Positions 1 to 10,405 of a stretch of 12,292 nt of DNA are shown in pieces. Every line of letters begins with the position of its first letter. Position 1 is the first letter of the stretch. Source of the stretch: a virus (Duplodnaviria; Heunggongvirae; Uroviricota; Caudoviricetes). The notes under the pieces were generated by a model. That model saw only the letters and a program-made list of their open reading frames with translations, was not told the origin of the DNA and searched no databases. The stretch spans positions 1 to 12,292 of the IMG/VR virus record IMGVR_UViG_2547132278_000008; one strand, 5' to 3'. The translations under genes were made by a program, and so were the position numbers.

Positions 1-769
<769 letters not shown>

Positions 770-774
770 AACAA

Positions 775-814
775 AAGCCTGCTTTAAAGAGAGTTTGAAG
801 CAGGCTTTCTTTTA
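775..814 (+). terminator. Rho-independent terminator after the exonuclease remnant
   Basis: 10-bp stem AAGCCTGCTT (775-784) pairs with AAGCAGGCTT (799-808), followed by TCTTTT. Confidence 0.6.
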
Positions 815-929
815 AAGAACAGTCGCCTTTCAATCATTTCCTGCCTGTATTTAATACTTTTCCGCCTGATAGGTTTAGTCAAAATGCAGCCATCGAAACG
901 CAAATGTAACCAAACAGAAGGAGACTTAC

Positions 930-1739
930 ATGAGTTCGGTTGAAAATGTAATGACAAATGATGATCTGGACGAGCTGACAGCCATGTTGCAATCACTTGA
1001 TGAACCAGTAAAAAAAGCTGCACAGGTTGAAAATACTGATGATATTGACGATCTGCTGCTCGGCCTAGATGCTGGCGTAGCCATGAGTTCTGATGATGTT
1101 GCCGAAGAACTGTTCAATGAAGAAAAAGCAGGTGATTTCAGCTCTACTTTAAATGAGTTGGAGTTAGCGCATGAGCCTATAAACGTAATTAACGCTGAAA
1201 GTGTTGAAGCTGCCGAAAACGAGCCAGAACAATTGGGATTTATTGAGGTTGAAGAGTGTGTTGAGGTTAATGATGAATTAAAAGTTCAACAGTCAAATGA
1301 TAGCAATACAAATAAAAAAGCTCGTACTGCAAGAGGTCCTCGTTTTACTTTAAGTGATAAAGATGATTCGTTTTTCAATAAAGCGGGCTTAGAAAAAGAT
1401 ATTTTCTTAGACGCTTACGATAACGCGCCTGTCAAAGCAAAGGATAAGATATTAAACCTTCTTAATTGGTTTAGCGGAGGTCCAGATATTAGTGTTTACA
1501 CGGTAATTTCCATGAGACACCTTCTCACAGAAAAGAAGGCTACAAGTAATAGTATTAAGATTGCTTTAATGAGCAATCCAGAAAAACCGTATCCGCTTAA
1601 CACTGCGTCAACTCAGGCTGGGCAAATGATGGCTGTATTTCCAGCGACAGGAATTGCCGTTAGAGACGGTGGAAATCTAACATTGAACGAAGAATCACCG
1701 ATCGTTAAGAAGTTTGTCGCGGAGTACACTATTGGATGA
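930..1739 (+). CDS. Hypothetical protein with a strongly acidic N-terminal half (269 aa); candidate DNA-mimic or anti-restriction protein
   Basis: ATG at 930 with GGAG 8 nt upstream. The first ~125 residues hold roughly 35 Asp/Glu against ~4 Lys by hand count; the C-terminal half is mixed-charge. No recognised motif. Confidence 0.6.
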   Translation: MSSVENVMTNDDLDELTAMLQSLDEPVKKAAQVENTDDIDDLLLGLDAGVAMSSDDVAEELFNEEKAGDFSSTLNELELAHEPINVINAESVEAAENEPEQLGFIEVEECVEVNDELKVQQSNDSNTNKKARTARGPRFTLSDKDDSFFNKAGLEKDIFLDAYDNAPVKAKDKILNLLNWFSGGPDISVYTVISMRHLLTEKKATSNSIKIALMSNPEKPYPLNTASTQAGQMMAVFPATGIAVRDGGNLTLNEESPIVKKFVAEYTIG

Positions 1740-1815
1740 CGTTCCCCTACTTAAAATAAAGCCCATAGAGAGCTTTATAGTACTGGGTAAGCCAATCACA
1801 TACCCAGCACCACAA

Positions 1816-1864
1816 AAACGCGCCAGAGAGCTTCTCGTTTGCATTTCTGGCGCGTTTTATTTGA
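1816..1864 (+). terminator. Rho-independent terminator
   Basis: 12-bp stem AAACGCGCCAGA (1816-1827) pairs with TCTGGCGCGTTT (1846-1857), followed by TTTTATTT. Confidence 0.55.
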
Positions 1865-1922
1865 TTGCCAGACATAAAATCAAATGCAAAAATAGGTATA
1901 TACTTACCTATCGAGAAAGAAG

Positions 1923-2516
1923 ATGATTGCAGCCGAAAAAATCAAACAGCGAAAGCGCGACAACTCTCTTCGTGACCTCTGGAGAACACCTGACTGGCTG
2001 TTTTCTGCCATTCAACGTTATCTTGGAGTGACATTTGATGTTGACGTTGCCTGCAACAAGGACAATGCAAAGCTGCCTAATTTCATAGGCGTTGAGCGTG
2101 ATGCTTTGAAATCTGAATGGGGACAGCCAGGTACAATTGCCTTCCTCAATCCACCCTACTCCAAAATCTACCCCTGGATTGATGCGGCTATACGTGAGCA
2201 GGCTCGCGGAGTTACAACAGTGATGCTAATTCCTCAATCCCTAGATACAAAGTGGTATGAGCGTGCAACAGAGTGTGCGAATGAGACGATTATTCTGTCT
2301 GGTGGCCGCGTAGCGTTTGTCGAGCCTGACGTAAATCTGGGTCAGGTAGAAGTAAACATCAACCCAGGTGGCAGTATGCTCGTTGTTTTTCGAGGATTCT
2401 GTCAGGACGCTGGGCACTCTATAAGCAAGATCCCTTTGGACGTCATGAAAAGTCTGGGAGGGTATGATCCTGCGAATGTGATCAGGAAAAAAAGACCATC
2501 AAAGAAGGCTGCTTAG
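1923..2516 (+). CDS. Phage-type DNA N6-adenine methyltransferase (small Dam family, 197 aa)
   Basis: Motif IV FLNPPYS is present, and the WRTPDWLF N-terminal signature and ~200 aa size match the small phage Dam family from memory. An inverted repeat ATAGGTA...TACCTAT (1893-1912) lies just upstream of the start. Confidence 0.8.
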   Translation: MIAAEKIKQRKRDNSLRDLWRTPDWLFSAIQRYLGVTFDVDVACNKDNAKLPNFIGVERDALKSEWGQPGTIAFLNPPYSKIYPWIDAAIREQARGVTTVMLIPQSLDTKWYERATECANETIILSGGRVAFVEPDVNLGQVEVNINPGGSMLVVFRGFCQDAGHSISKIPLDVMKSLGGYDPANVIRKKRPSKKAA

Positions 2517-2537
2517 TTTGTTCTGGCGTCTGTAATT

Positions 2538-2602
2538 AGCCTGCTTCTGTATATATAAATAACCACATATTAATTATTAATATACGGAAGCAGGCTGTTT
2601 TG
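2538..2602 (+). terminator. Long-loop hairpin with T-tract (terminator-like) after the methyltransferase
   Basis: AGCCTGCTTC (2538-2547) pairs with GAAGCAGGCT (2587-2596), then GTTTTG. The loop is 39 nt and AT-rich. The stem core is the same as in the 775-808 terminator. Confidence 0.4.
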
Positions 2603-2701
2603 TATCAGAGACTCCAGACCTGAACATCACTACAGAATCCACTAGAACCCCTTCCCAGACGCTTTAAAATCGATTTTATGAACCACTTTAAGGAAACCAA
2701 C

Positions 2702-2932
2702 ATGTCATACCCGACTAATGTCGTTGCGCTCGTAGAGAGCGATTTTCTGGCCCAGGCTCGTGAAATGATGAAAGATCGTGAGCAGGCTTTCAACTTGTAC
2801 GAATGGGCAATTAAGTGCTTGCATCTTGGCGAGCATCGCGAACTTGTTGAACAGCTTTTAGGTGAGTTGATCAATGAGGTGTTTGCCTTGAATGTTCAAC
2901 TACATGGTAGAGAAAATAATCAATCACAATGA
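2702..2932 (+). CDS. Hypothetical small protein (76 aa; alternative start at 2678)
   Basis: ATG at 2702 preceded by AAGGA (2690-2694). Translation MSYPTNVVALVESDFLAQAREMMKDREQAFNLYEWAIK... has no recognised motif. Confidence 0.4.
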   Translation: MSYPTNVVALVESDFLAQAREMMKDREQAFNLYEWAIKCLHLGEHRELVEQLLGELINEVFALNVQLHGRENNQSQ

Positions 2933-3514
2933 TAGATAAGTACAAACTATTCATAAAGTGAATTGTAAGTGCTAAGATCTGATAGTTTCCAGTCGTAGAC
3001 TGGAGACTCGACCTGATGGGTGGGGGTAAGCGTCACTGGCGTCAGGTTTAAAAAAGCTCACTACCAGCGTAGAACTGGTGCCGTTTAGGTGTCGGGGAAG
3101 GGGGAACCAAAGTGAGCAGAGACAAGGGTCACTTTATGATTGTCGAGTCTGGGGTGTTTCGAGAGGTTGAATCCAGTACTCCCCTTCATAAAGTGTGGGA
3201 AGATCTCGGTTCTGGGGTGCTGTCATCCATAACTTCCCAAGTCTAAGCTGGCAGTAGACTTAGACCATAACTTTTCAGGTTATGAAACGACCAGGTTGGT
3301 GAGAGATTTTTATACTCACCTCCCTGGGAGAGTATTACCTGAAAAGACAACCTCTCACTTCGTTCGAGGTGAACTTCACTCACTTCGTTCGTTCAGTTCA
3401 GGTTTATAAAAACCTGTTCTGGGAAGTAATTTGTTTATTTTAATAATTATTAACACGCACGCGTGTGCGCACGCGCGAGGAAAAATCGGCGCGGCGCTTG
3501 ATTCAGGAGTTTAT
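2933..3514. other. ORF-free, repeat-rich and hairpin-rich intergenic region; candidate structured ncRNA, origin or regulatory hub
   Basis: No ORF of 60 aa or more on either strand. Hairpins include CCAGTC gta GACTGG (2989-3003), GGTGAG...CTCACC (3298-3320) and AGGTTT ataa AAACCT (3401-3416). Direct repeats include TCTGGGGTG at 3138-3146 and 3211-3219, and CACTTCGTTCG at 3356-3366 and 3381-3391. Confidence 0.3.
3453..3477. repeat. 25-nt perfectly alternating purine-pyrimidine tract (Z-DNA-prone) with central CACGCGTG palindrome
   Basis: ACACGCACGCGTGTGCGCACGCGCG read directly; lies about 40 bp upstream of the RNase HI start codon. Confidence 0.9.
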
Positions 3515-4105
3515 ATGACGACGAAGACACCAGCCCGATCGCAAGCAAAAACTCGCAAAAAAGACAAAAACAAAAATTCTCCCCGCACCAATCCCACAAC
3601 GCCTGTCGTAGAGTTCAATCCCCAGCTTAAAACCGTGAAAATCTTTAGTGATGGCTCTTGCCTTAAAAATCCGGGTGGCCCGGGCGGTTACGGTATCGTT
3701 CTCCAGTATCGTGGTGAGGAACGCGAGTTCTCAGATGGTTTTCATAGCACCACCAATAACCGCATGGAGATGATGGGGGCACTTATCGGGCTGGAGCGTT
3801 TGAAATATCCATGCAACGTTATTTTGCACTCTGATAGCCAGTATCTGAAAAACGGCATGACACAGTGGATGAAATGGTGGAAACGCAATGGATGGATGAC
3901 TTCTGACAAAAAACCGGTAAAGAATGTTGATCTGTGGAAGCGTCTGGATGAGGCCGCAAGTCGACATAATGTTCGCTGGAAGTGGGTTAAAGGTCACGCC
4001 GGGCATCGTGAAAATGAAATATGTGATCGACTCGCGAAGATCGCAGCTTTTTCAGCAGCAGATATGCCTCACAAGAAAGATATTGGTTTTGTTTATAACA
4101 AATAG
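3515..4105 (+). CDS. Ribonuclease HI paralog (196 aa) with a ~45-aa basic N-terminal extension
   Basis: AGGAG at 3505-3509 precedes ATG 3515. The core aligns by eye to E. coli RNase HI with all catalytic residues present: IFSDGSC (D), NNRMEMMGA (E), HSDSQY (D), [18 protein letters not shown] (H, D). The extension is Lys/Arg/Pro/Thr-rich. Confidence 0.85.
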
Positions 4106-4202
4106 TAAGTAAGTGTTTACCTATCATTTTAAATCATGTATCTTATCGGCGTCAGGATGACAATGTGTCGGTAAGACACAGTTCCAGGATGGAACGAGAA
4201 AG

Positions 4203-4224
4203 GCGGCTGGCAATCGCCAGCCGC
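4203..4224 (+). terminator. GC-rich hairpin (possible terminator or 5'UTR structure)
   Basis: GCGGCTGGC aatc GCCAGCCGC forms a 9-bp stem; the downstream tail CTCTTTCT is only weakly U-rich. Confidence 0.35.
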
Positions 4225-4253
4225 AACTCTTTCTGACACTGGATGGAGTCCAC

Positions 4254-4748
4254 ATGGCACGTCAAACCTATTTCACTTCTGTAACTAAACGTCCTCGTTC
4301 TTTACGTCAAATTTTGGCCGAATTATTTAGCGGTCGTGTTATGTCACGTCTTGATGAACTAGAGACTACCGTTCGGTTGCTGAATGAACGTTTAGATAAT
4401 CAAGCGTCAGTTGTTGCGAACGTGGGGGCGATTGTTGCCTCTGGTTCTTCACGCGAAGCGAAAAGTACACGGCCTTTAGTGAAGGAGAAAAACAACAAGG
4501 ACAGTTCGAATGGAAAATTTTCAAAGAAAGAGGCTGAAACCAATGGCCTACGTTCTCATTATAGTTTCACTGGCGACGGTAGCCGTTCCAGCCGGCCAGA
4601 GCCTTTTGATGCCGGGTTCATCCATCACCACACCTCCGTCGACGACAATTACCACCACTCCAGTAGAGCGTCCTGTCACTCTGGATGGGATGACGGTGGA
4701 TGCGATACCTCAAGTTCATCCGGTTACTCAGGATCATGCTGTGACTAA
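4254..4748 (+). CDS. Hypothetical protein; N-terminal ~85 aa look coding, C-terminal part is doubtful (overlapped by a +1 frame ORF)
   Basis: GGAG at 4245-4248 precedes ATG 4254. The N-terminus is coiled-coil-like, but after about residue 90 the translation becomes Ser/His/Cys/Gly-rich low complexity. Confidence 0.35.
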   Translation: MARQTYFTSVTKRPRSLRQILAELFSGRVMSRLDELETTVRLLNERLDNQASVVANVGAIVASGSSREAKSTRPLVKEKNNKDSSNGKFSKKEAETNGLRSHYSFTGDGSRSSRPEPFDAGFIHHHTSVDDNYHHSSRASCHSGWDDGGCDTSSSSGYSGSCCD

Positions 4749-4761
4749 GGCGGTTGTATGA
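4510..4761 (+). CDS. Small putative secreted or membrane-anchored Thr/Pro-rich protein (83 aa)
   Basis: AAGGA at 4496-4500 precedes ATG 4510. It has a signal-peptide-like N-terminus (MENFQRKRLKPMAYVLIIVSLATVAVPAGQS) and a TTPPSTTITTTP tract, and its stop overlaps the next start as ATGA. Confidence 0.4.
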   Translation: MENFQRKRLKPMAYVLIIVSLATVAVPAGQSLLMPGSSITTPPSTTITTTPVERPVTLDGMTVDAIPQVHPVTQDHAVTKAVV

Positions 4762-4946
4762 ACTGGTTTTCAAATCACTTTGGAAAAATTTGGCTGGCAA
4801 TTCTTGCCCTCATGGCCGCCGGTTGGGTATCGAACATTATAAAACTTGTTTGCTCTGGCGATCTCCAGTTTCAGGCTGGCATGACCTTGGCTCGTGTAGT
4901 TGGGATTTTTGTTTTTCCAGTCGGTTCGGTACTTGGTTATTTCTGA
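4758..4946 (+). CDS. Small membrane protein (62 aa, two predicted transmembrane helices)
   Basis: ATG 4758 overlaps the preceding stop (ATGA). Hydrophobic segments IWLAILALMAAGWV and VVGIFVFPVGSVLGYF. Confidence 0.45.
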   Translation: MNWFSNHFGKIWLAILALMAAGWVSNIIKLVCSGDLQFQAGMTLARVVGIFVFPVGSVLGYF

Positions 4947-5001
4947 CGGCTGTTAGTGCATATGCATTGACCATCTTTGCGTAAGCAATTTATGTAATTA
5001 G

Positions 5002-5020
5002 AAAACAACTTGTTTTGACA
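5002..5020. promoter_or_regulatory. Perfect palindromic operator-like site AAAACAA-C-TTGTTTT overlapping a consensus TTGACA hexamer
   Basis: Read directly at 5002-5016; TTGACA at 5015-5020. Sits 23 nt upstream of ATG 5040. A possible -35/-10 pair (TTGACC 4967-4972, TATGTA 4991-4996) lies upstream, but the promoter assignment is uncertain. Confidence 0.45.
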
Positions 5021-5039
5021 AATAATAAAAGGAAAACAC

Positions 5040-5465
5040 ATGTTAGGTTTCTTCAAAAAGAAAACTCGTAAAGCTGTTATCGAAGTCAAAAAAATGGAGA
5101 ACCGTGATGCGGTTGAGGCCACCGTGTGGGGCGCGTACATGATCTCCTATGCCGACGGCACATGTGACGCAAAAGAAATTGCCATTCTTGAGAAGACAAT
5201 TGCAGCTCTGCCTGCGTTTTCTCCGTTTGCTGGTGAAATTGCCCAAATGAGCGCCAATATCCGTGCTCGTTACGAAGCGTCCCCTCGTTCTGCTAATGCA
5301 CAGGCTATTCGTGAGCTGTCTGATATTGCGGGTACTCCAGAGGCGGTCGATGTTCTGTGTCTGTGCCTTGATATTGCCGATCAGGACGGCATTGGTGAAC
5401 AAGAAGAGCAGGCACTGAAAAAGATCGCCCAGGCGCTTCAGTTGTCACTGGATGCTTATCTCTAA
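5040..5465 (+). CDS. TerB-like (tellurite-resistance TerB family) protein, 141 aa
   Basis: AAGGA at 5029-5033 precedes ATG 5040. Two TerB-type repeats with acidic Asp-Gly motifs (ISYADGTCDAKEIAILEK and CLDIADQDGIGEQEEQALKKI) match the TerB architecture from memory. Confidence 0.7.
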   Translation: MLGFFKKKTRKAVIEVKKMENRDAVEATVWGAYMISYADGTCDAKEIAILEKTIAALPAFSPFAGEIAQMSANIRARYEASPRSANAQAIRELSDIAGTPEAVDVLCLCLDIADQDGIGEQEEQALKKIAQALQLSLDAYL

Positions 5466-5623
5466 TGCTTGAGAGATTCCGGCTTGTGATCGTCATTGCT
5501 CTTCTGGTGATGGCGGTGTTGGTGGATTTTACGGGAAAGATGATGTCTGTCATTTCTGATGGCGTCCTCATTGGTTTGGCGATCTACTTCGCTTATCCGT
5601 TAGTTCGTAAAGCAAAGTGTTAA
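5465..5623 (+). CDS. Unannotated small membrane protein (52 aa), translationally coupled to the TerB-like gene
   Basis: TAATG stop/start overlap at 5463-5467. Hand translation gives MLERFRLVIVIALLVMAVLVDFTGKMMSVISDGVLIGLAIYFAYPLVRKAKC with two hydrophobic segments. It is below the 60-aa threshold of the ORF track. Confidence 0.5.
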   Translation: MLERFRLVIVIALLVMAVLVDFTGKMMSVISDGVLIGLAIYFAYPLVRKAKC

Positions 5624-5625
5624 TG

Positions 5626-5653
5626 ACAAGGGCCATTTGGCCCTTGTGTTTCG
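5626..5653 (+). terminator. Rho-independent terminator after the TerB-like/membrane pair
   Basis: ACAAGGGCC attt GGCCCTTGT forms a 9-bp stem, then GTTTCG. Confidence 0.5.
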
Positions 5654-5730
5654 TTGACCGAAATAGAGAGTTTGCACCTTTACGTTTAGCTTGCTCCCCT
5701 TTTATGCCACATCACAATAAAGCCAATAAG

Positions 5731-5745
5731 AAAACAACTTGTTTA
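5731..5745. promoter_or_regulatory. Second copy of the operator-like palindrome (AAAACAACTTGTTTA)
   Basis: Matches the 5002-5016 site at 14 of 15 positions within a shared AGAAAACAACTTGTTT context; sits 17 nt upstream of ATG 5763. Confidence 0.45.
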
Positions 5746-5762
5746 AGCATTAAGGAAAACAC

Positions 5763-6329
5763 ATGTGCGAGAAATGCAAAGCAATAGCTGATGAACAAAA
5801 CGCCCTATTCGAAGAAATGGATGCTAATGAACTTGTCAAAATGTTAGGCATTGTTCGGGGAACAGAAGACGTTTCTATATTTGAGAGACTGTTTACAGTA
5901 CTTAATTTTAATTCCACCTTTGAAGAGCCAACTCAGGTTGTAGCTTTGGCACACCATTTCGGTGTTCATTATCTTGCCGAAAAAGAGCGCGCTAATAAGT
6001 TGCAGGCGACTTTGGATATGGTGAGCGAGACTCAAGGAACCCATGACGGTAACAATAGTGAGACGATTATTGCCAGCAAAGATCGTGAAATTGCCGGACT
6101 TAAGTCTTCTCTAACGATGTTGATGTCTGCAATCAATCTTATGTCTTCTAAAGCGGGATATAAAATGCCATCACTAAACAGTGACGATCCAATGGCCGTT
6201 CGCCAGCTTTTGGGAGCAATGGCCGACCAGCTTGATGATACGAAAAGTCGGCTTGAAGACATGATGCGGGAGCTTACGCATCGCCACGACTTGAATAAGC
6301 AACCGCACAAAACGCAATACGCACTCTAA
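5763..6329 (+). CDS. Hypothetical protein (188 aa)
   Basis: AAGGA at 5752-5756 precedes ATG 5763. No recognised motif. The gene has its own operator-like site upstream and a terminator downstream. Confidence 0.6.
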   Translation: MCEKCKAIADEQNALFEEMDANELVKMLGIVRGTEDVSIFERLFTVLNFNSTFEEPTQVVALAHHFGVHYLAEKERANKLQATLDMVSETQGTHDGNNSETIIASKDREIAGLKSSLTMLMSAINLMSSKAGYKMPSLNSDDPMAVRQLLGAMADQLDDTKSRLEDMMRELTHRHDLNKQPHKTQYAL

Positions 6330-6346
6330 TACTGCACCAGTCGACA

Positions 6347-6368
6347 GGGGGCGAAAGCCCCCATTTTT
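6347..6368 (+). terminator. Rho-independent terminator with GAAA tetraloop
   Basis: GGGGGC gaaa GCCCCC followed by ATTTTT. Confidence 0.7.
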
Positions 6369-6427
6369 ACGCCTTAAATCTGCTGTAACGCCTATGAATG
6401 CAGCTTTTATGCCTTTTTAAGTTTGCG

Positions 6428-6472
6428 ATAATTACACCAATCAGAAAACAAATTATTTAATGGTGTAATTAT
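6428..6472. promoter_or_regulatory. 12-bp perfect inverted repeat embracing a degenerate operator motif and the start codon of the 6471 gene
   Basis: ATAATTACACCA (6428-6439) pairs with TGGTGTAATTAT (6461-6472). The 21-nt spacer holds AAAACAAaTTATTTA (6445-6459), and the A and T of ATG 6471 lie inside the right arm. Confidence 0.45.
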
Positions 6473-8156
6473 GAATACAGCCCTTTCCATCATCGACGAT
6501 GCCAGCTCAAACACGGCTATCGACTATCGTCAGGAAATGAATGTCATCCACGAAATCGTGGCCGAGTGCGAGAAAGAGATCGCCTTCATGTATCAGGTAC
6601 ACGACTTCGTTTATGGCGACGAACGCCACAACATGATTAATCGCCTGCTGAGACTAAACCATCGACCAGATGAAGATCGCTCGCGTTTAAATCGAGGTTG
6701 GTTGGATAAAGTCGATCTGGAATGGGTGAAACAGAATATTTGGGCCGAGTACTGGAGGAAGGTCACGGACATGACTAACGTTTTGCTGATCATGCCAGCT
6801 TCCCGTCGAGATGAGTGGCGCGAGCAGTTTATAGAGGGCAAACAGGAAGTCATCAAAACTGACAGAACCGGCTGCCAGATGAAGGTTAAAGAGTTCGTTG
6901 GTGTACCGGAGTTCAAAGCAGAAACGGTCATACCCACGATGCTTAATTTGCTGAATGACAGGCACAAATATCTCTCTGAGCGCGTGTATGGCTTGTTTAA
7001 GGCGCTGAGTCCTGCGCACAAGACAAATAAGACAAACGGTTTCAGCGAGCGTCTGATAATCGCTGACTGCATTTCTGATTTCTGGCGGGACAGCGTTAGC
7101 GTGAACTATCGCAAAGAGGACTACATCGACGATCTGCGTGTCTTGCTTCATTTCTTCGCGCACAAAGAATTTATTACCATCAACCGCACTGCTGAGGTGC
7201 TATCAGCTGCGTATCGGGCAAACGACTGCCAGACCGGTGACTGGATGAACGTCGATGGAAATCTGATGCGCGTGAAGATGTTCAAGAACGGCAACGTTCA
7301 CTTTGAAATACATCCTGACGTGGCCTGGAAGTTGAATGAGGTGCTGGCTTACAGTATGCCTGCTGCAATCCCCGCGCCATGCCGAACTGCGCCAAAAACA
7401 CGGGCACCAAAGCAGTTCGGGTTAATCCAGAAGACGATCTCCGTGCCGGTTCGCACTGCGCTTCGTGACGGGCGATTGAGCAAAGACAAAGGCGTATGGT
7501 ACTTCTCTGATTCAGCTCTCCAGAAGTCGCAGGTGGAAGAGCTTGAGCGCACACTGAGCTTCATTGGCGGCGTGCAGGAGAAAAAGCACTGGCAGTTCCC
7601 GTATGACATCGGCCATACGCTAAATACGATTGTGGCTACCGGTTTAATACCGGATACAAAATCACACCAGTTCTACCCTACCCCACGCTTGATTGCTGAG
7701 TACGTTGCAAGAGCCACTGAATTGAAGCCTGGTGAGAAGCTGTTGGAGCCTCAAGCCGGACGTGGGGATCTTCTGGCCTATATAAACGCCGATCTGGAAG
7801 ATGTTACCTGCATAGAAATCGCACCTCTCTTCGCTGATATCCTGCGTGGAAAAGGGTATACGAACACGATTTGCTGCGACTTCATAAAGTGGTCTGAGGA
7901 CAACGCAGGTTATCAGTTCGACAAAATCGTTATGAACCCGCCGTACTCGCTTGGTCGTCATAGAGAGCACACGCTGGCTGCGCTGGGGCATCTGAAAGTC
8001 GGCGGGCGTCTTGTAGCAGTATTGCCGGGCACTGCGCCAATACTGGACTGGATGACGATGGATAATTACGTTTATGCCAGAGGGAAGTCGTTTACCAACG
8101 AGTTTGAAGACACAGGGATCACAGTCAGCGTATACGTTTTCAAACGCGTTAAATGA
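6471..8156 (+). CDS. Large protein (561 aa): N-terminal ~400 aa of unknown function fused to a C-terminal N6-adenine methyltransferase domain
   Basis: A motif I-like segment (LLEPQAGRGDLLAYI) and motif IV (VMNPPYS) sit in the last ~150 residues. The N-terminal region has no motif I recognise. Confidence 0.75.
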   Translation: MNTALSIIDDASSNTAIDYRQEMNVIHEIVAECEKEIAFMYQVHDFVYGDERHNMINRLLRLNHRPDEDRSRLNRGWLDKVDLEWVKQNIWAEYWRKVTDMTNVLLIMPASRRDEWREQFIEGKQEVIKTDRTGCQMKVKEFVGVPEFKAETVIPTMLNLLNDRHKYLSERVYGLFKALSPAHKTNKTNGFSERLIIADCISDFWRDSVSVNYRKEDYIDDLRVLLHFFAHKEFITINRTAEVLSAAYRANDCQTGDWMNVDGNLMRVKMFKNGNVHFEIHPDVAWKLNEVLAYSMPAAIPAPCRTAPKTRAPKQFGLIQKTISVPVRTALRDGRLSKDKGVWYFSDSALQKSQVEELERTLSFIGGVQEKKHWQFPYDIGHTLNTIVATGLIPDTKSHQFYPTPRLIAEYVARATELKPGEKLLEPQAGRGDLLAYINADLEDVTCIEIAPLFADILRGKGYTNTICCDFIKWSEDNAGYQFDKIVMNPPYSLGRHREHTLAALGHLKVGGRLVAVLPGTAPILDWMTMDNYVYARGKSFTNEFEDTGITVSVYVFKRVK

Positions 8157-8217
8157 TAGGTAAATACTTACTTAATTTATGTAAGAATGTAGTTACTAAA
8201 CGATAAGAGAAAAACAC

Positions 8218-8922
8218 ATGAGCAACCTCCAGTTAGAGCATTTTAACGTCACAGGCCATTCCGATTTTCCTTTCAAGTTTACATTGAAAGGTTATGCAGA
8301 GGATGCGGTAGGCCAGATCATTATTGATAAAGGCATCGTTAAGTTTGAGGGGAATTTTGATGAATCCGCGAAAACATTCATAGACTTCGTTGCCAAACGT
8401 TGGAGCGAGCAATGGAAAGACCTGGAAAAGCGCGCTAGTGAGTTTGATCGGTTCATGGATGCAATGGATACAGCAAAAGAGGCTCTTGCTGCCGGGACTC
8501 CGTTAGATCTGGAGTCACTTTTCAACGGCGAAGTGGCCTCTGCGATGTTCGCCACCATGTTCGCGGGTGAGTTCGTCCGCAGCGGTGCCAAAAACTACCT
8601 TGAGCTGGATTACAACGTCCCTGCAATTGGCGATTTCGTCGTTACCATCCAACGCAAAGAAGGTAAGACGCCAGGTGAACGCGTCGCAGAGCTTGAGGCC
8701 GTTGTGGATCAGCGTAACGGAGAGTGTGACCGTTTGATCAACGAGCTTCATGCACTTCGGGAAGAAAGAATATGCGCGGGTAGTAATACACGTAATGCAG
8801 CGGATATCTACTTCCAGTTAGTTGAGGAATGCCAGATTCCACCAGGTGGCTCTCTTGTCGATTACGTCAGACATTTAATGGCGGAAGTTAACTCCAGCCA
8901 TAAAGATGGTGAGGTGCGCTGA
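8218..8922 (+). CDS. Hypothetical protein (234 aa), downstream of the methyltransferase fusion with no intervening terminator
   Basis: Leader ...AAGAGAAAAACACATG. Long ORF with a clean shadow pattern; no recognised motif. Confidence 0.6.
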   Translation: MSNLQLEHFNVTGHSDFPFKFTLKGYAEDAVGQIIIDKGIVKFEGNFDESAKTFIDFVAKRWSEQWKDLEKRASEFDRFMDAMDTAKEALAAGTPLDLESLFNGEVASAMFATMFAGEFVRSGAKNYLELDYNVPAIGDFVVTIQRKEGKTPGERVAELEAVVDQRNGECDRLINELHALREERICAGSNTRNAADIYFQLVEECQIPPGGSLVDYVRHLMAEVNSSHKDGEVR

Positions 8923-9302
8923 TGTTTGGCATTGATGCACAGCGTATAGCAGCTTTTGCAAAAAGTCCTCTTGATAATCCCTTGTCTCGTAGTGAGCAAA
9001 TGGCGCTGGCAAGGCTTTTTCTTCACATTCAAAAACAGGCAGACGTTTTCAATAACATGCCTGATCAACCTATTCTGGATGGTCACATCCAGATGGTCAT
9101 TAACAGTCATGAGAAAGGCTGGGCTGCAATCGTCCCCTGCACAATTACATACAAGTTGGCGAAAGAGGTTCAAGAGTTTCGAAAAGTCAGCGTCGAATCA
9201 GAGTCTACCAAAGCCGCAATAAACACTCTTATTCGCATGGGGTTCACATGGGACGGTGGAGCTTACTGGCAAGCACCTCAACCCATTTTATCCGACAATT
9301 AG
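8922..9302 (+). CDS. Hypothetical protein (126 aa), translationally coupled to the 8218 gene
   Basis: TGATG stop/start overlap at 8920-8924. No recognised motif. Confidence 0.55.
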   Translation: MFGIDAQRIAAFAKSPLDNPLSRSEQMALARLFLHIQKQADVFNNMPDQPILDGHIQMVINSHEKGWAAIVPCTITYKLAKEVQEFRKVSVESESTKAAINTLIRMGFTWDGGAYWQAPQPILSDN

Positions 9303-9332
9303 GCGCTACAAATCCTTCTGCATGAATAAATA

Positions 9333-9367
9333 AAGGCCATAAGTTATGGCCTTAAATAAATTGTTTT
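9333..9367 (+). terminator. Hairpin with downstream T-tract (terminator-like); tail carries a degenerate operator half-site
   Basis: AAGGCCATAA g TTATGGCCTT (9333-9353), then AAATAAATTGTTTT (9354-9367). Confidence 0.45.
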
Positions 9368-9440
9368 CTACCTTTTCTTATTTGTGAAAATAAACCAGCA
9401 CTTGGTAGTGCTTATGTAACAGCAAAGAAGAGAAAAACAC

Positions 9441-9941
9441 ATGAGTAACAAAATCGAAAATCCCGTAGTTCTCATTCACAAGCGCGAGAACCACGACTCC
9501 TATGCGGTGGCGATCACCAATGGGAGTCACGATTTTTACGATGGCCTGCTAATGGCCTCAGTGTCGCCTGATGAGGCAGACAACTCTTTTGCCGTCTTCG
9601 CTATGGTTGGTTACTACATGGCTGCCGAAATTGAGAAGTTGCGGGCGCAAAGAGACGCATTAGCGGCGGAGAATGCAGCCCTGAAAGAATCTGAGCGAGC
9701 ATTCGATGCGATGTGTGCCGAGGAACACGGAGATAATTGGGTTAGCGAATTAACGGAGACTCCAGCCACCGATACTTTTCTGGCTGAAGTACGTGCGCAG
9801 GGCGTGGATATGGCTCGTAACGCGATGATTGATTTTGTTGATGGTGAAGTTGGGCCAAACAAGAACGTTCCGGGGCTGATTAGAGGCGCAGAGATATGCG
9901 TAAGTATTGCTGAACAGCTTCGTAAAGGAGTCATCCAGTGA
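9441..9941 (+). CDS. Hypothetical phage protein (166 aa), first gene of a six-gene coupled operon
   Basis: Leader ...GAAGAGAAAAACACATG. Contains a coiled-coil-like AEIEKLRAQRDALAAENAALKE segment. Confidence 0.6.
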   Translation: MSNKIENPVVLIHKRENHDSYAVAITNGSHDFYDGLLMASVSPDEADNSFAVFAMVGYYMAAEIEKLRAQRDALAAENAALKESERAFDAMCAEEHGDNWVSELTETPATDTFLAEVRAQGVDMARNAMIDFVDGEVGPNKNVPGLIRGAEICVSIAEQLRKGVIQ

Positions 9942-10405
9942 GCAAGATTGACTATCAGGCACTGCGTGAAAAGGCAGAGAAAGCAACGTGTGGTAAGTGG
10001 TCGCTCGAATATGGAGAGAGCCGATTTGATGGTGATGATGCGCTAATTCATCGTGAAGTTGCTGGATATATTCCTATTTGCAGAATTGAAGGAGCGCATC
10101 CTGAAAGCGGTTTCGATGAAGATTTCCAGATGGAACAGCAGGCCAATGCTGAATTCATCGCCGCAGCCAGTCCAGCTACCGTGCTGGCACTACTGGATGA
10201 GATCAACGCATTAGAGGAAACGCGTATCAACGATGTTTGCCGTATTGCGGAACTAACAAAACAACTGGAGTTGGCAAAATCAAAACTCAACGAGCAGCGT
10301 GAGTATTACGAGGGCGTTATCTCGGATGGAAGTAAGCGCATAGCCGCTCTTCTTCGCAAGGACAATCTTGCCAGCGCCACGAACATTGAAGGTGAAAGAA
10401 AATGA
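9938..10405 (+). CDS. Ead/Ea22-like phage protein (155 aa)
   Basis: GTG start with AAGGAG at 9925-9930; GTGA overlap with the upstream stop. The N-terminal [18 protein letters not shown] and later [23 protein letters not shown] resemble lambdoid Ea22-like proteins from memory. Confidence 0.6.

Follow-up and report, generated by a model that had tools for sequence, protein, structure and literature searches.

Leader-Bearing Genes of the Window

The DNA considered here (the window) is the whole 12,292-nucleotide (nt) stretch of the IMG/VR virus record IMGVR_UViG_2547132278_000008, and our subject is a short leader that recurs in it directly before four genes, at the start codons 5040, 5763, 8218, and 9441. 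The window is 97–98% identical over 5.8 kb to Escherichia coli plasmids of ~106–112 kb, e.g., pR9-658-1 (NZ_CP107165.1), and has the same gene order as this plasmid across positions 348–9979; the identity of its DNA is 97% to phages Cyrano and CMS-2020a, 83% to SSU5, and 76% to Klebsiella phage pJN2-26. The related plasmids carry a RepB replicon and ParB genes together with genes for terminase, portal, capsid, and lambda-like tail proteins, dnaE, nrdAB, and tRNAs. This joint plasmid and phage gene set, the synteny, and the level of identity place the window within an SSU5-like phage-plasmid. Matches to its DNA occur in ~1,600 E. coli genomes. The leader-bearing genes are the following:

5040–5623 (+): two-gene unit of a TerB/TciA-like gene (5040–5465) and a TciB/DUF3927 gene (5465–5623); in SSU5, an antirepressor unit stands in its place
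5763–6329 (+): 188-amino-acid (aa) gene of phrog_5508, a family of unknown function
8218–9302 (+): 234-aa (phrog_8364) and 126-aa (phrog_10451) genes with overlapping stop and start codons (ATGA)
9441–9941 (+): 166-aa gene (phrog_492), first of a coupled string of Ea22-like genes

Their leaders, together with a fifth start of a similar type, are arranged as follows (SD, Shine–Dalgarno sequence):

5026–5042 (+): leader 1, AAAAGGAAAACAC-ATG, with SD AAGGA at 5029–5033 and start at 5040, TerB/TciA-like gene
5750–5765 (+): leader 2, TTAAGGAAAACAC-ATG, 188-aa gene (phrog_5508)
8203–8220 (+): leader 3, ATAAGAGAAAAACAC-ATG, 234-aa gene (phrog_8364)
9394–9443 (+): leader 4, a 47-nt 5′ leader with a hairpin at 9397–9412, ending in AAGAGAAAAACAC-ATG, 166-aa gene (phrog_492)
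4241–4256 (+): fifth CAC-type start, GGATGGAGTCCAC-ATG, 164-aa gene starting at 4254

The initial annotation had described near-identical leaders on four unrelated genes, and this description is accurate. Direct reading of the window gives AAGGAAAACACATG at 5029–5042 and 5752–5765 and AAGAGAAAAACACATG at 8205–8220 and 9428–9443, while the four products have no detectable similarity to one another (pairwise blastp, best E = 1.1) and fall into a TerB/TciA-like family (PF05099/phrog_632) and the families phrog_5508, phrog_8364, and phrog_492, the last three comprising proteins of unknown function. The 9-mer AAACACATG common to all four leaders has exactly four matches in the window, all on the + strand, versus 0.16 expected, and none of 200 dinucleotide-preserving shuffles reaches this number; GAAAACACATG occurs in two copies versus 0.03 expected. 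With one mismatch allowed, the 9-mer has five matches versus 4.3 expected, which is not above chance; what carries the signal is therefore the exact copies together with their location at gene starts. The leaders at 8218 and 9441 share a longer match of 22 nt (95%) that includes the first three codons.

Each of the four ATGs is the first ATG of an open reading frame (ORF) and coincides with an annotated coding sequence (CDS) start in the ~98% identical pR9-658-1, and also in Cyrano, SSU5, and pJN2-26. Homologues of the leader-bearing genes align from residue 1, which supports these ATGs as the probable real gene starts. An SD-like sequence precedes all of them: the ATGs at 5040 and 5763 have AAGGA at a distance of 6 nt, and those at 8218 and 9441 have (A)AGAG, a weaker SD match, at a distance of 8 nt. 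At the fifth start, 4254, CAC stands directly before the ATG (GGAGTCCAC-ATG). Upstream of this start, within the expected leader of the gene, lies a GC-rich hairpin of 9 bp with a T-rich tract behind it (4203–4224, +; 30 nt before the ATG), which is kept in SSU5 and pJN2-26 and may represent an attenuator or a terminator of the rnhA unit.

The 166-aa protein is itself a mosaic. Its residues ~64 to 163 are common to Ead/Ea22-like proteins of many lambdoid prophages, and two alleles of its N-terminal part (MSNK... and MREK...) occur in differing expression contexts.

Distribution of the Leader in SSU5-Like Genomes

For the genome-wide analysis, three full genomes were compared: E. coli pR9-658-1, Salmonella SSU5, and Klebsiella pJN2-26. 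The 9-mer AAACACATG occurs on the gene strand 11, 10, and 9 times, respectively, and not once on the opposite strand of any of them. In pR9-658-1, nine of the 11 copies are located at annotated starts, including those of dnaE, nrdB, and an SbcD-like phosphoesterase gene; one more is at an in-frame ATG upstream of the GTG start of a primase-like gene, and one is internal. The copy near the primase-like gene (26049–26057, −) lies in the reading frame of this gene (24870–25985), 66 nt before its annotated GTG start, which suggests that this start is misannotated. Another copy (23518–23526, −) opens a 9-codon mini-ORF ending in the SD of the DNA ligase gene.

The enrichment extends to the triplet directly before the start codon. 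CAC is the most frequent triplet at positions −3 to −1 in all three genomes (15/124 genes in pR9-658-1, 12/123 in SSU5, and 12/115 in pJN2-26), whereas three to four genes per genome are expected from single-position frequencies. The pooled consensus of 39 sites is aaAaGGaAAAACAC-ATG, with G at −10/−9 in 56–74% of the sites. The spacer is specific beyond its composition: AAACAC is used eight to nine times per genome, while none of the other fourteen permutations of four A and two C is seen more than once.

The genes that bear this leader are a distinct class. Each of the 15 CAC genes of pR9-658-1 is a first gene, separated from its upstream neighbour by 43 nt or more of intergenic DNA (hypergeometric P = 5e-4), and the late (structural and lysis) block, 28 genes in all, contains no CAC leader. 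Their initiation regions are predicted to be weakly structured: the mean minimum free energy of the −30 to +21 segment is −3.8 kcal/mol for the 15 CAC-class starts, compared to −5.7 kcal/mol for other first genes (P = 0.024) and −6.9 kcal/mol for closely spaced genes.

Outside the SSU5-like group, two different patterns are seen. The exact 16-mer AAAGGAAAAACACATG is present in at least 120 viral contig stretches, and 87 of its 92 sites (95%) in contigs unrelated to SSU5 start an ORF; thus, it probably works there as an ordinary ribosome-binding site. At other SD-preceded starts of unrelated viral contigs, CAC is found in only 1.2% of cases (rank 27 of 64), versus 15.8% (rank 1) at SD-preceded starts in SSU5-like loci, i.e., an enrichment of ~10-fold over unrelated phage contigs. 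Lambdoid prophage loci, used as a host-matched control, have CAC at 4 of 97 starts, a value of little weight because the start-finder missed SSU5-like leaders with a weak SD. Leaders of tciA genes elsewhere have a different spacer, namely AAAAGGAAAGTCACT-ATG in lambdoid phages and TAATGAGGTTAATAA-ATG in P1.

Conservation between Genera

The initial annotation had proposed aligning the leaders across related elements, and this alignment revealed that AAACAC is conserved across three genera while the flanks have diverged. In orthologous leaders of E. coli, Salmonella, and Klebsiella, the hexamer is kept, and the SD flavour, the linker, and the upstream DNA change, so that the spacer is better conserved between genera than the SD itself. 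For example, the orthologue of leader 1 in Klebsiella is ATAGGGAAAAACAC-ATG, and those of leader 3 are AGAGGTAAACAC-ATG in SSU5 and AGAGGGAAAAACAC-ATG in Klebsiella. At the same time, each leader retains its own orthologue-specific SD flavour in all three genera, which argues against recent conversion between leaders.

Larger samples agree with this pattern. At the helicase gene, every one of 79 IMG/VR loci has CAC-ATG, with 34 distinct upstream variants among them (all relatives in this query being at least 92% identical), and CAC is present in 39 of the 41 IMG/VR loci homologous to the 188-aa gene.

A single recent local duplication was considered as the source of the four copies and rejected: the flanks are non-homologous, the proteins are unrelated, the rest of the ~110-kb genome contains at least ten further copies, and the Salmonella and Klebsiella relatives have conserved orthologous ones.

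Putative Regulatory DNA around the Leaders

The leaders are embedded in intergenic DNA that contains two dispersed palindromes, A (AGAAAACAACTTGTTTTG; core AAACAAnTTGTTT) and B (ATAGGTAAnnnACTTACCTAT, 18–22 bp), as well as promoter-like and terminator-like elements:

5000–5017 (unstranded): palindrome A, core 5003–5015, 23 nt before ATG 5040
5729–5746 (unstranded): palindrome A, core 5732–5744, between a −10-like CACAAT (5713–5718) and the SD of the 5763 unit
6443–6460 (unstranded): palindrome A, core 6446–6458, between an extended −10 element TGCGATAAT (6424–6432) and the SD of the DUF4942-methyltransferase gene
9333–9393 (+): repeated module of a terminator hairpin (9333–9353), inverted palindrome A (9352–9369, core 9354–9366), CCTTTTCTTATTTG, and an extended −10 element TGTGAAAAT (9383–9391)
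8155–8188 (unstranded): palindrome B (GATAGGTAAATACTTACTTAAT, 8155–8176) followed by a conserved −10-like TGTAAGAAT (8180–8188), upstream of leader 3
1893–1910 (unstranded): palindrome B, just upstream of the Dam-like methyltransferase gene (ATG 1923)
4106–4123 (unstranded): palindrome B, downstream of rnhA and upstream of the 4254 unit
5626–5647 (+): intrinsic-terminator-like hairpin closing the TerB-DUF3927 unit
6347–6362 (+): intrinsic-terminator-like hairpin closing the unit of the 188-aa gene

In pR9-658-1, palindrome A has 18 sites with at most one mismatch, compared to 0.5 in shuffles, and about 18–26 copies overall. Palindrome B has ~30 sites there, nearly all of them intergenic and situated in early and late regions, and its three sites in the window (1893–1910, 4106–4123, and 8157–8174) compare to 0.01 expected. 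Relative to the putative promoters, it is found either at the −35 position, as with the conserved TGTAAGAAT of unit 8218, or immediately ahead of the SD, as in unit 1923, and a similar site lies upstream of a gene for a helix-turn-helix (HTH) regulator (WP_001282577.1) that adjoins the integrase gene. The fullest order of elements is a terminator hairpin, inverted palindrome A, CCTTTTCTTATcTG, an extended −10 element (TGnGAtAATAA), ~8 nt, palindrome A, SD, and ATG. In such cases, palindrome A, being present near both −35 and +1, brackets the putative promoter. Both palindromes are putative repressor operators that would silence these units in the plasmid prophage, and the palindrome B set looks like the operators of the prophage repressor.

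The promoters themselves do not follow the canonical pattern. A −35/−10 consensus scan gave 11 sites overall versus 17.6 in shuffles, and only extended −10-like elements (TGnGAtAAT and TGTAAGAAT) are conserved upstream of the units. We also considered TTATGTAA, which is present upstream of three leaders (4991, 8179, and 9414), as a common element and discarded it: the copy at the 9441 unit derives from coding sequence of a relative, and the copy at the 8218 unit is conserved and resembles a −10 element.

The leader is found behind palindrome-A promoters, behind palindrome-B promoters, and behind upstream regions with neither, and therefore it represents a separate module. The DUF4942-methyltransferase unit (ATG 6471) has palindrome A and lacks the AAACAC leader.

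Modules of the 9333–9393 type also stand upstream of the HD-domain operon in SSU5, pJN2-26, and EC08 p2. Beyond the SSU5-like group, this module is 83–84% identical to an unannotated accessory region found in P7 (2001–2064), SJ46, and some P1 variants, indicating that regulatory DNA is shared between two phage-plasmid families. As a functional clue, this similarity (9330–9393) was set aside, since the accessory region of P7 is unannotated and gives no functional hint.

Exchange of Transcription Units

The initial annotation had suggested modular gene exchange at a fixed junction. Whole units are indeed swapped between relatives; however, the breakpoints fall in promoter or terminator DNA or in the 3′ ends of genes, not in the leader. 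Among relatives, the position ahead of the 188-aa gene is occupied by the TerB+DUF3927 unit at 32 loci, by the antirepressor unit at six, and by both in tandem at one. In some plasmids, a C39-peptidase pair is inserted before the DUF4942-methyltransferase gene. The mapped breakpoints (in window coordinates) are 4924, 5660/5677, 5713, 6286, 6412, 9172, 9393, and 9441; 4924, 5660/5677, 5713, 6412, and 9393 are in intergenic regulatory DNA, 6286 and 9172 are in gene 3′ ends, and one of the eight (9441) is at an ATG, the number of events being small.

The antirepressor gene (IMG/VR contig 2724679538_000004, 1540–1600; SSU5, 3150–3260) starts directly after the preceding terminator with GGAG-n5-ATG and has neither a promoter module nor a palindrome nor an AAACAC leader; its annotated start in SSU5 seems to be placed too far downstream.

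The history of leader 4 is informative. The module 9333–9393 is predicted to drive the HD-domain operon in EC08 p2, SSU5, and pJN2-26, while in the window it is followed by the 47-nt leader and the 166-aa gene. In a more distant relative (L129), the DNA homologous to leader 4 belongs to the 3′ end of an ORF located upstream, and its last letters are AAAAAAT-ATG. In the window lineage, a deletion joined this segment to the promoter, and the end now reads AAACAC-ATG. In EC08 p2, the other allele of the 166-aa gene is the third in an operon, is translationally coupled, and has no such leader. These contexts indicate that the leader goes with the first position behind a promoter rather than with a particular gene or junction.

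Window Boundaries and a Candidate Structured RNA

The remaining features concern the origin of the window and its left part:

1–240 (−): HTH fragment of a transposase, left boundary of the phage-plasmid DNA
11930–12292 (−): C-terminus of an IS66 transposase, right boundary of the phage-plasmid DNA
314–769 (+): 3′-5′ exonuclease gene, 5′-truncated (151 codons from TTG versus 185 aa in pR9-658-1)

The window is a fragment of an SSU5/pHCM2-like phage-plasmid flanked by insertion sequences (IS). Given the IS boundaries and the truncated exonuclease gene, the phage-plasmid may no longer be intact here, the window being perhaps a remnant or a rearranged copy.

The gap between a 76-aa ORF and rnhA (2933–3514) contains a candidate unannotated structured RNA of ~410 nt (3007–3420, +). 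It folds far better than shuffled sequences (z = −4.4, 0/100 shuffles), shows compensatory changes in five predicted pairs, and is 88–91% identical to SSU5 and pJN2-26, while the flanking genes are just 67–83% identical. A search of the window against Rfam gave no family at the gathering score, and one chance match (E = 0.04) in 2900–3520. The sole ORF within the candidate (3112–3246) corresponds to CYRAN_81, which is listed as 12-fold above the prophage background in LF82 lysogens (PMC9928086). One can speculate that the candidate is an origin or primer RNA, since a phage RNase HI gene, an AT-rich stretch, and a GC-rich palindrome (3455–3480) adjoin it.

Discussion

We suggest, with a probability of roughly 0.6, that the four leaders represent a selected, lineage-specific consensus ribosome-binding region of promoter-proximal early genes. 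The consensus initiation region is aAAGGAAAAaCAC-AUG, in which the SD (AAGGA or GAG) is followed by an A-rich spacer that is free of G and U and ends in CAC. SSU5-like phage-plasmids carry it on the first gene of ~10–15 early, DNA-metabolism, and accessory transcription units as the last module of a composite intergenic control region. This region presumably runs from the terminator of the preceding unit through an operator-like palindrome (A or B) and an extended −10-type promoter, often with a second palindrome A over the putative transcription start, to the leader. The latter would act as an open, efficient ribosome-docking site for the 5′-proximal cistron, and purifying selection would keep it. 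Accepting this, the identity of the four copies reflects a shared selected design, not a recent duplication or a recombination junction at the ATG.

Several observations weigh against this interpretation. If the leader were a plain unstructured A/C-rich optimum, neither the preference for AAACAC over the other permutations of the same composition nor the lineage-specific enrichment of CAC (1.2% versus 15.8%) would be explained, nor would the lack of the leader in strongly expressed late genes, e.g., the one for the major capsid protein. In the L129 relative, two orthologous leaders have no CAC. The scan for the canonical consensus found no −35/−10 pair at the expected place upstream of the five units, so the promoters and the 5′ ends of the leaders are putative. 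The hexamer specificity, the lineage restriction, and the lack of the leader in late genes together allow for a specific recognition partner. A generic phage ribosome-binding optimum alone is insufficient: the 16-mer is widespread at unrelated gene starts, but the CAC enrichment is missing from unrelated contigs.

Such a partner is the core of the proposal, also raised by the initial annotation, that the leader is a common post-transcriptional control site, with which the conservation of AAACAC is compatible. AAACAC-AUG beside the SD would then be a class-specific translational operator, bound by an RNA-binding repressor or cut by an endoribonuclease of the phage-plasmid or the host, that switches the early units jointly. 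The proposal accounts for conservation that is sequence-specific and not merely compositional, for a spacer more conserved between genera than the SD, and for the restriction of the leader to early promoter-proximal cistrons of one lineage independently of the promoter and operator class. Nevertheless, we consider it rather unlikely. The CDS names of pR9-658-1 (~124), SSU5, and pJN2-26 include no RNA-binding or translational regulator, a survey of names only, with many small “hypothetical” proteins and no dedicated scan by profile hidden Markov models. Nor was a trans-encoded anti-leader detected: duplex scans of all 67 intergenic segments of pR9-658-1 returned as strong complements only the leaders' own antisense strands, and other hits were no better than shuffled leaders. 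The candidate structured RNA at 3007–3420 was rejected as an anti-leader since its GUGUUU (3153–3170) is not conserved in Klebsiella. Moreover, the exact 16-mer is an ordinary gene start at 87 of 92 sites in unrelated viral contigs, so no special factor is needed for it to work. The narrower form of the proposal, that AAACAC-AUG is a dedicated operator whose spacer is recognised by an SSU5-like-specific or host factor on some 10–15 early mRNAs of at least two promoter/operator classes, appears slightly less probable still; if true, it would add a second, post-transcriptional layer of early-gene silencing or shut-off above the DNA operators. Cleavage by MazF (at ACA) yielding leaderless mRNAs was also considered, and nothing found here supports it.

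Recombination offers another explanation, by which the leader is merely the 3′ end of a mobile promoter-terminator cassette that was spread and homogenised in the manner of the PeSL cassettes discussed below. We regard this as unlikely, more so than either form of the operator, although many features of the intergenic DNA speak for it: terminator/palindrome/promoter modules of 45–70 nt are repeated in each genome and shared with P7 and P1 variants; units are gained, lost, and replaced between relatives with breakpoints in this DNA; the 22-nt match of leaders 3 and 4 reaches into the first codons; and leader 4 was made by a deletion fusing a shared promoter module to new downstream DNA. The leader itself behaves differently. 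Its within-genome homology extends over only 9–16 nt and is broken by non-homologous linkers, it stands behind different promoter/operator classes, its orthologue-specific SD flavours in three genera leave no sign of recent conversion among paralogous leaders, and a single mapped breakpoint out of eight coincides with an ATG. Retention of CAC at ~75% genome identity is also not explained by spread alone. As for a chance resemblance of A-rich SD regions in an AT-rich intergenic background, it draws on the one-mismatch 9-mer, which is not above expectation in the window, and on the 16-mer being common in a very large viral database; we find it very improbable, given the four exact copies versus 0.16 expected (0/200 shuffles) and the ~10-fold enrichment over unrelated contigs, and it is refuted by the restriction of the copies to the gene strand and their bias to gene starts in three genomes.

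Comparison with Known Systems

The nearest described parallel is provided by the PeSL (promoter-early stem-loop) cassettes of T4-type phages (Arbiol et al. 2010, PMC2839356; Comeau et al. 2014, PMC4122927). In both systems, short composite intergenic modules occur in many copies in the plastic, early-expressed part of a phage genome, and the order of elements is a stop codon, a terminator stem-loop, a promoter, an SD, and the start of a gene mostly of unknown function. In PeSL-bearing genomes, indels and replacements between close relatives end in the modules; of the few breakpoints mapped here, 4924, 5660/5677, 5713, 6412, and 9393 lie in comparable intergenic DNA, and 6286 and 9172 lie in gene 3′ ends. 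The predicted terminator-like hairpins at 5626–5647, 6347–6362, and 9333–9353, directly upstream of the next promoter region, also correspond to the PeSL plan. However, the PeSL promoter has a sigma-70 consensus (−35 and −10), while here an extended −10-like element without a good −35 is present; operator-like palindromes flank the promoters here and are absent from PeSLs; the conserved spacer between SD and ATG is not a described PeSL feature; and the carrier is a temperate siphovirus-type phage-plasmid (RepB/ParB, lambda-like tail genes), not a T4-type myovirus. PeSLs are also associated with inter-cassette recombination and mini-circles. With neither a consensus sigma-70 promoter nor a T4-type genome, the modules were not classed as PeSLs.

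A joint control of early mRNAs through their ribosome-binding regions has precedents in T4, where RegA is a translational repressor of many early mRNAs acting at AU-rich sites around the AUG, and RegB cleaves GGAG in early SDs. The likeness is that unrelated early mRNAs share a sequence of the ribosome-binding region, permitting joint post-transcriptional control; the difference is that here the shared element is AAACAC before the AUG, and the annotation of these genomes lists neither a RegA nor a RegB homologue.

With respect to the palindromes, P1 provides a counterpart, its C1 operators being asymmetric 17-mers scattered over the genome. P1 and the SSU5-like elements are similar as plasmid prophages with many operator-like copies beside separate early-unit promoters (B ~30 and A ~18–26 in pR9-658-1), although the P1 17-mers are asymmetric and unrelated in sequence to palindromes A and B, which are putative operators.

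The leader of T7 gene 10, AAGGAGAUAUACAU-AUG, is a strong phage ribosome-binding leader. It resembles the leader considered here in combining an SD with an A-rich, poorly structured spacer of 6–8 nt, in efficient initiation (which for the SSU5-like leader is presumed), and in its reuse on several phage genes; in the SSU5-like elements, however, the shared part spans the whole spacer to −1, and its use is limited to promoter-proximal early genes in a single lineage.

Biological Significance

E. coli, Salmonella, and Klebsiella commonly harbour SSU5-like phage-plasmids, and these elements bear resistance genes; for example, the reference relative has CTX-M-15 and dfrA51. No description of gene regulation, of the leader, or of the palindromes of SSU5-like elements was found in the searchable literature, and the leader together with the two dispersed palindromes provides a first sequence-level map of their early transcription units. 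This map may be used for the correction of gene starts, as in the primase-like gene, for predicting accessory genes that are silent in the lysogen, and for the design of reporters.

As it stands, the finding is a neat, unsurprising consensus ribosome-binding site, copies of which are carried by a dozen or more early units of SSU5-like elements. We consider the leader a tidy lineage-wide design feature, neither a swap junction nor a proven control site. If the spacer were a specific operator, the leader-bearing genes of this clinically relevant mobile element would form a new post-transcriptional regulon.

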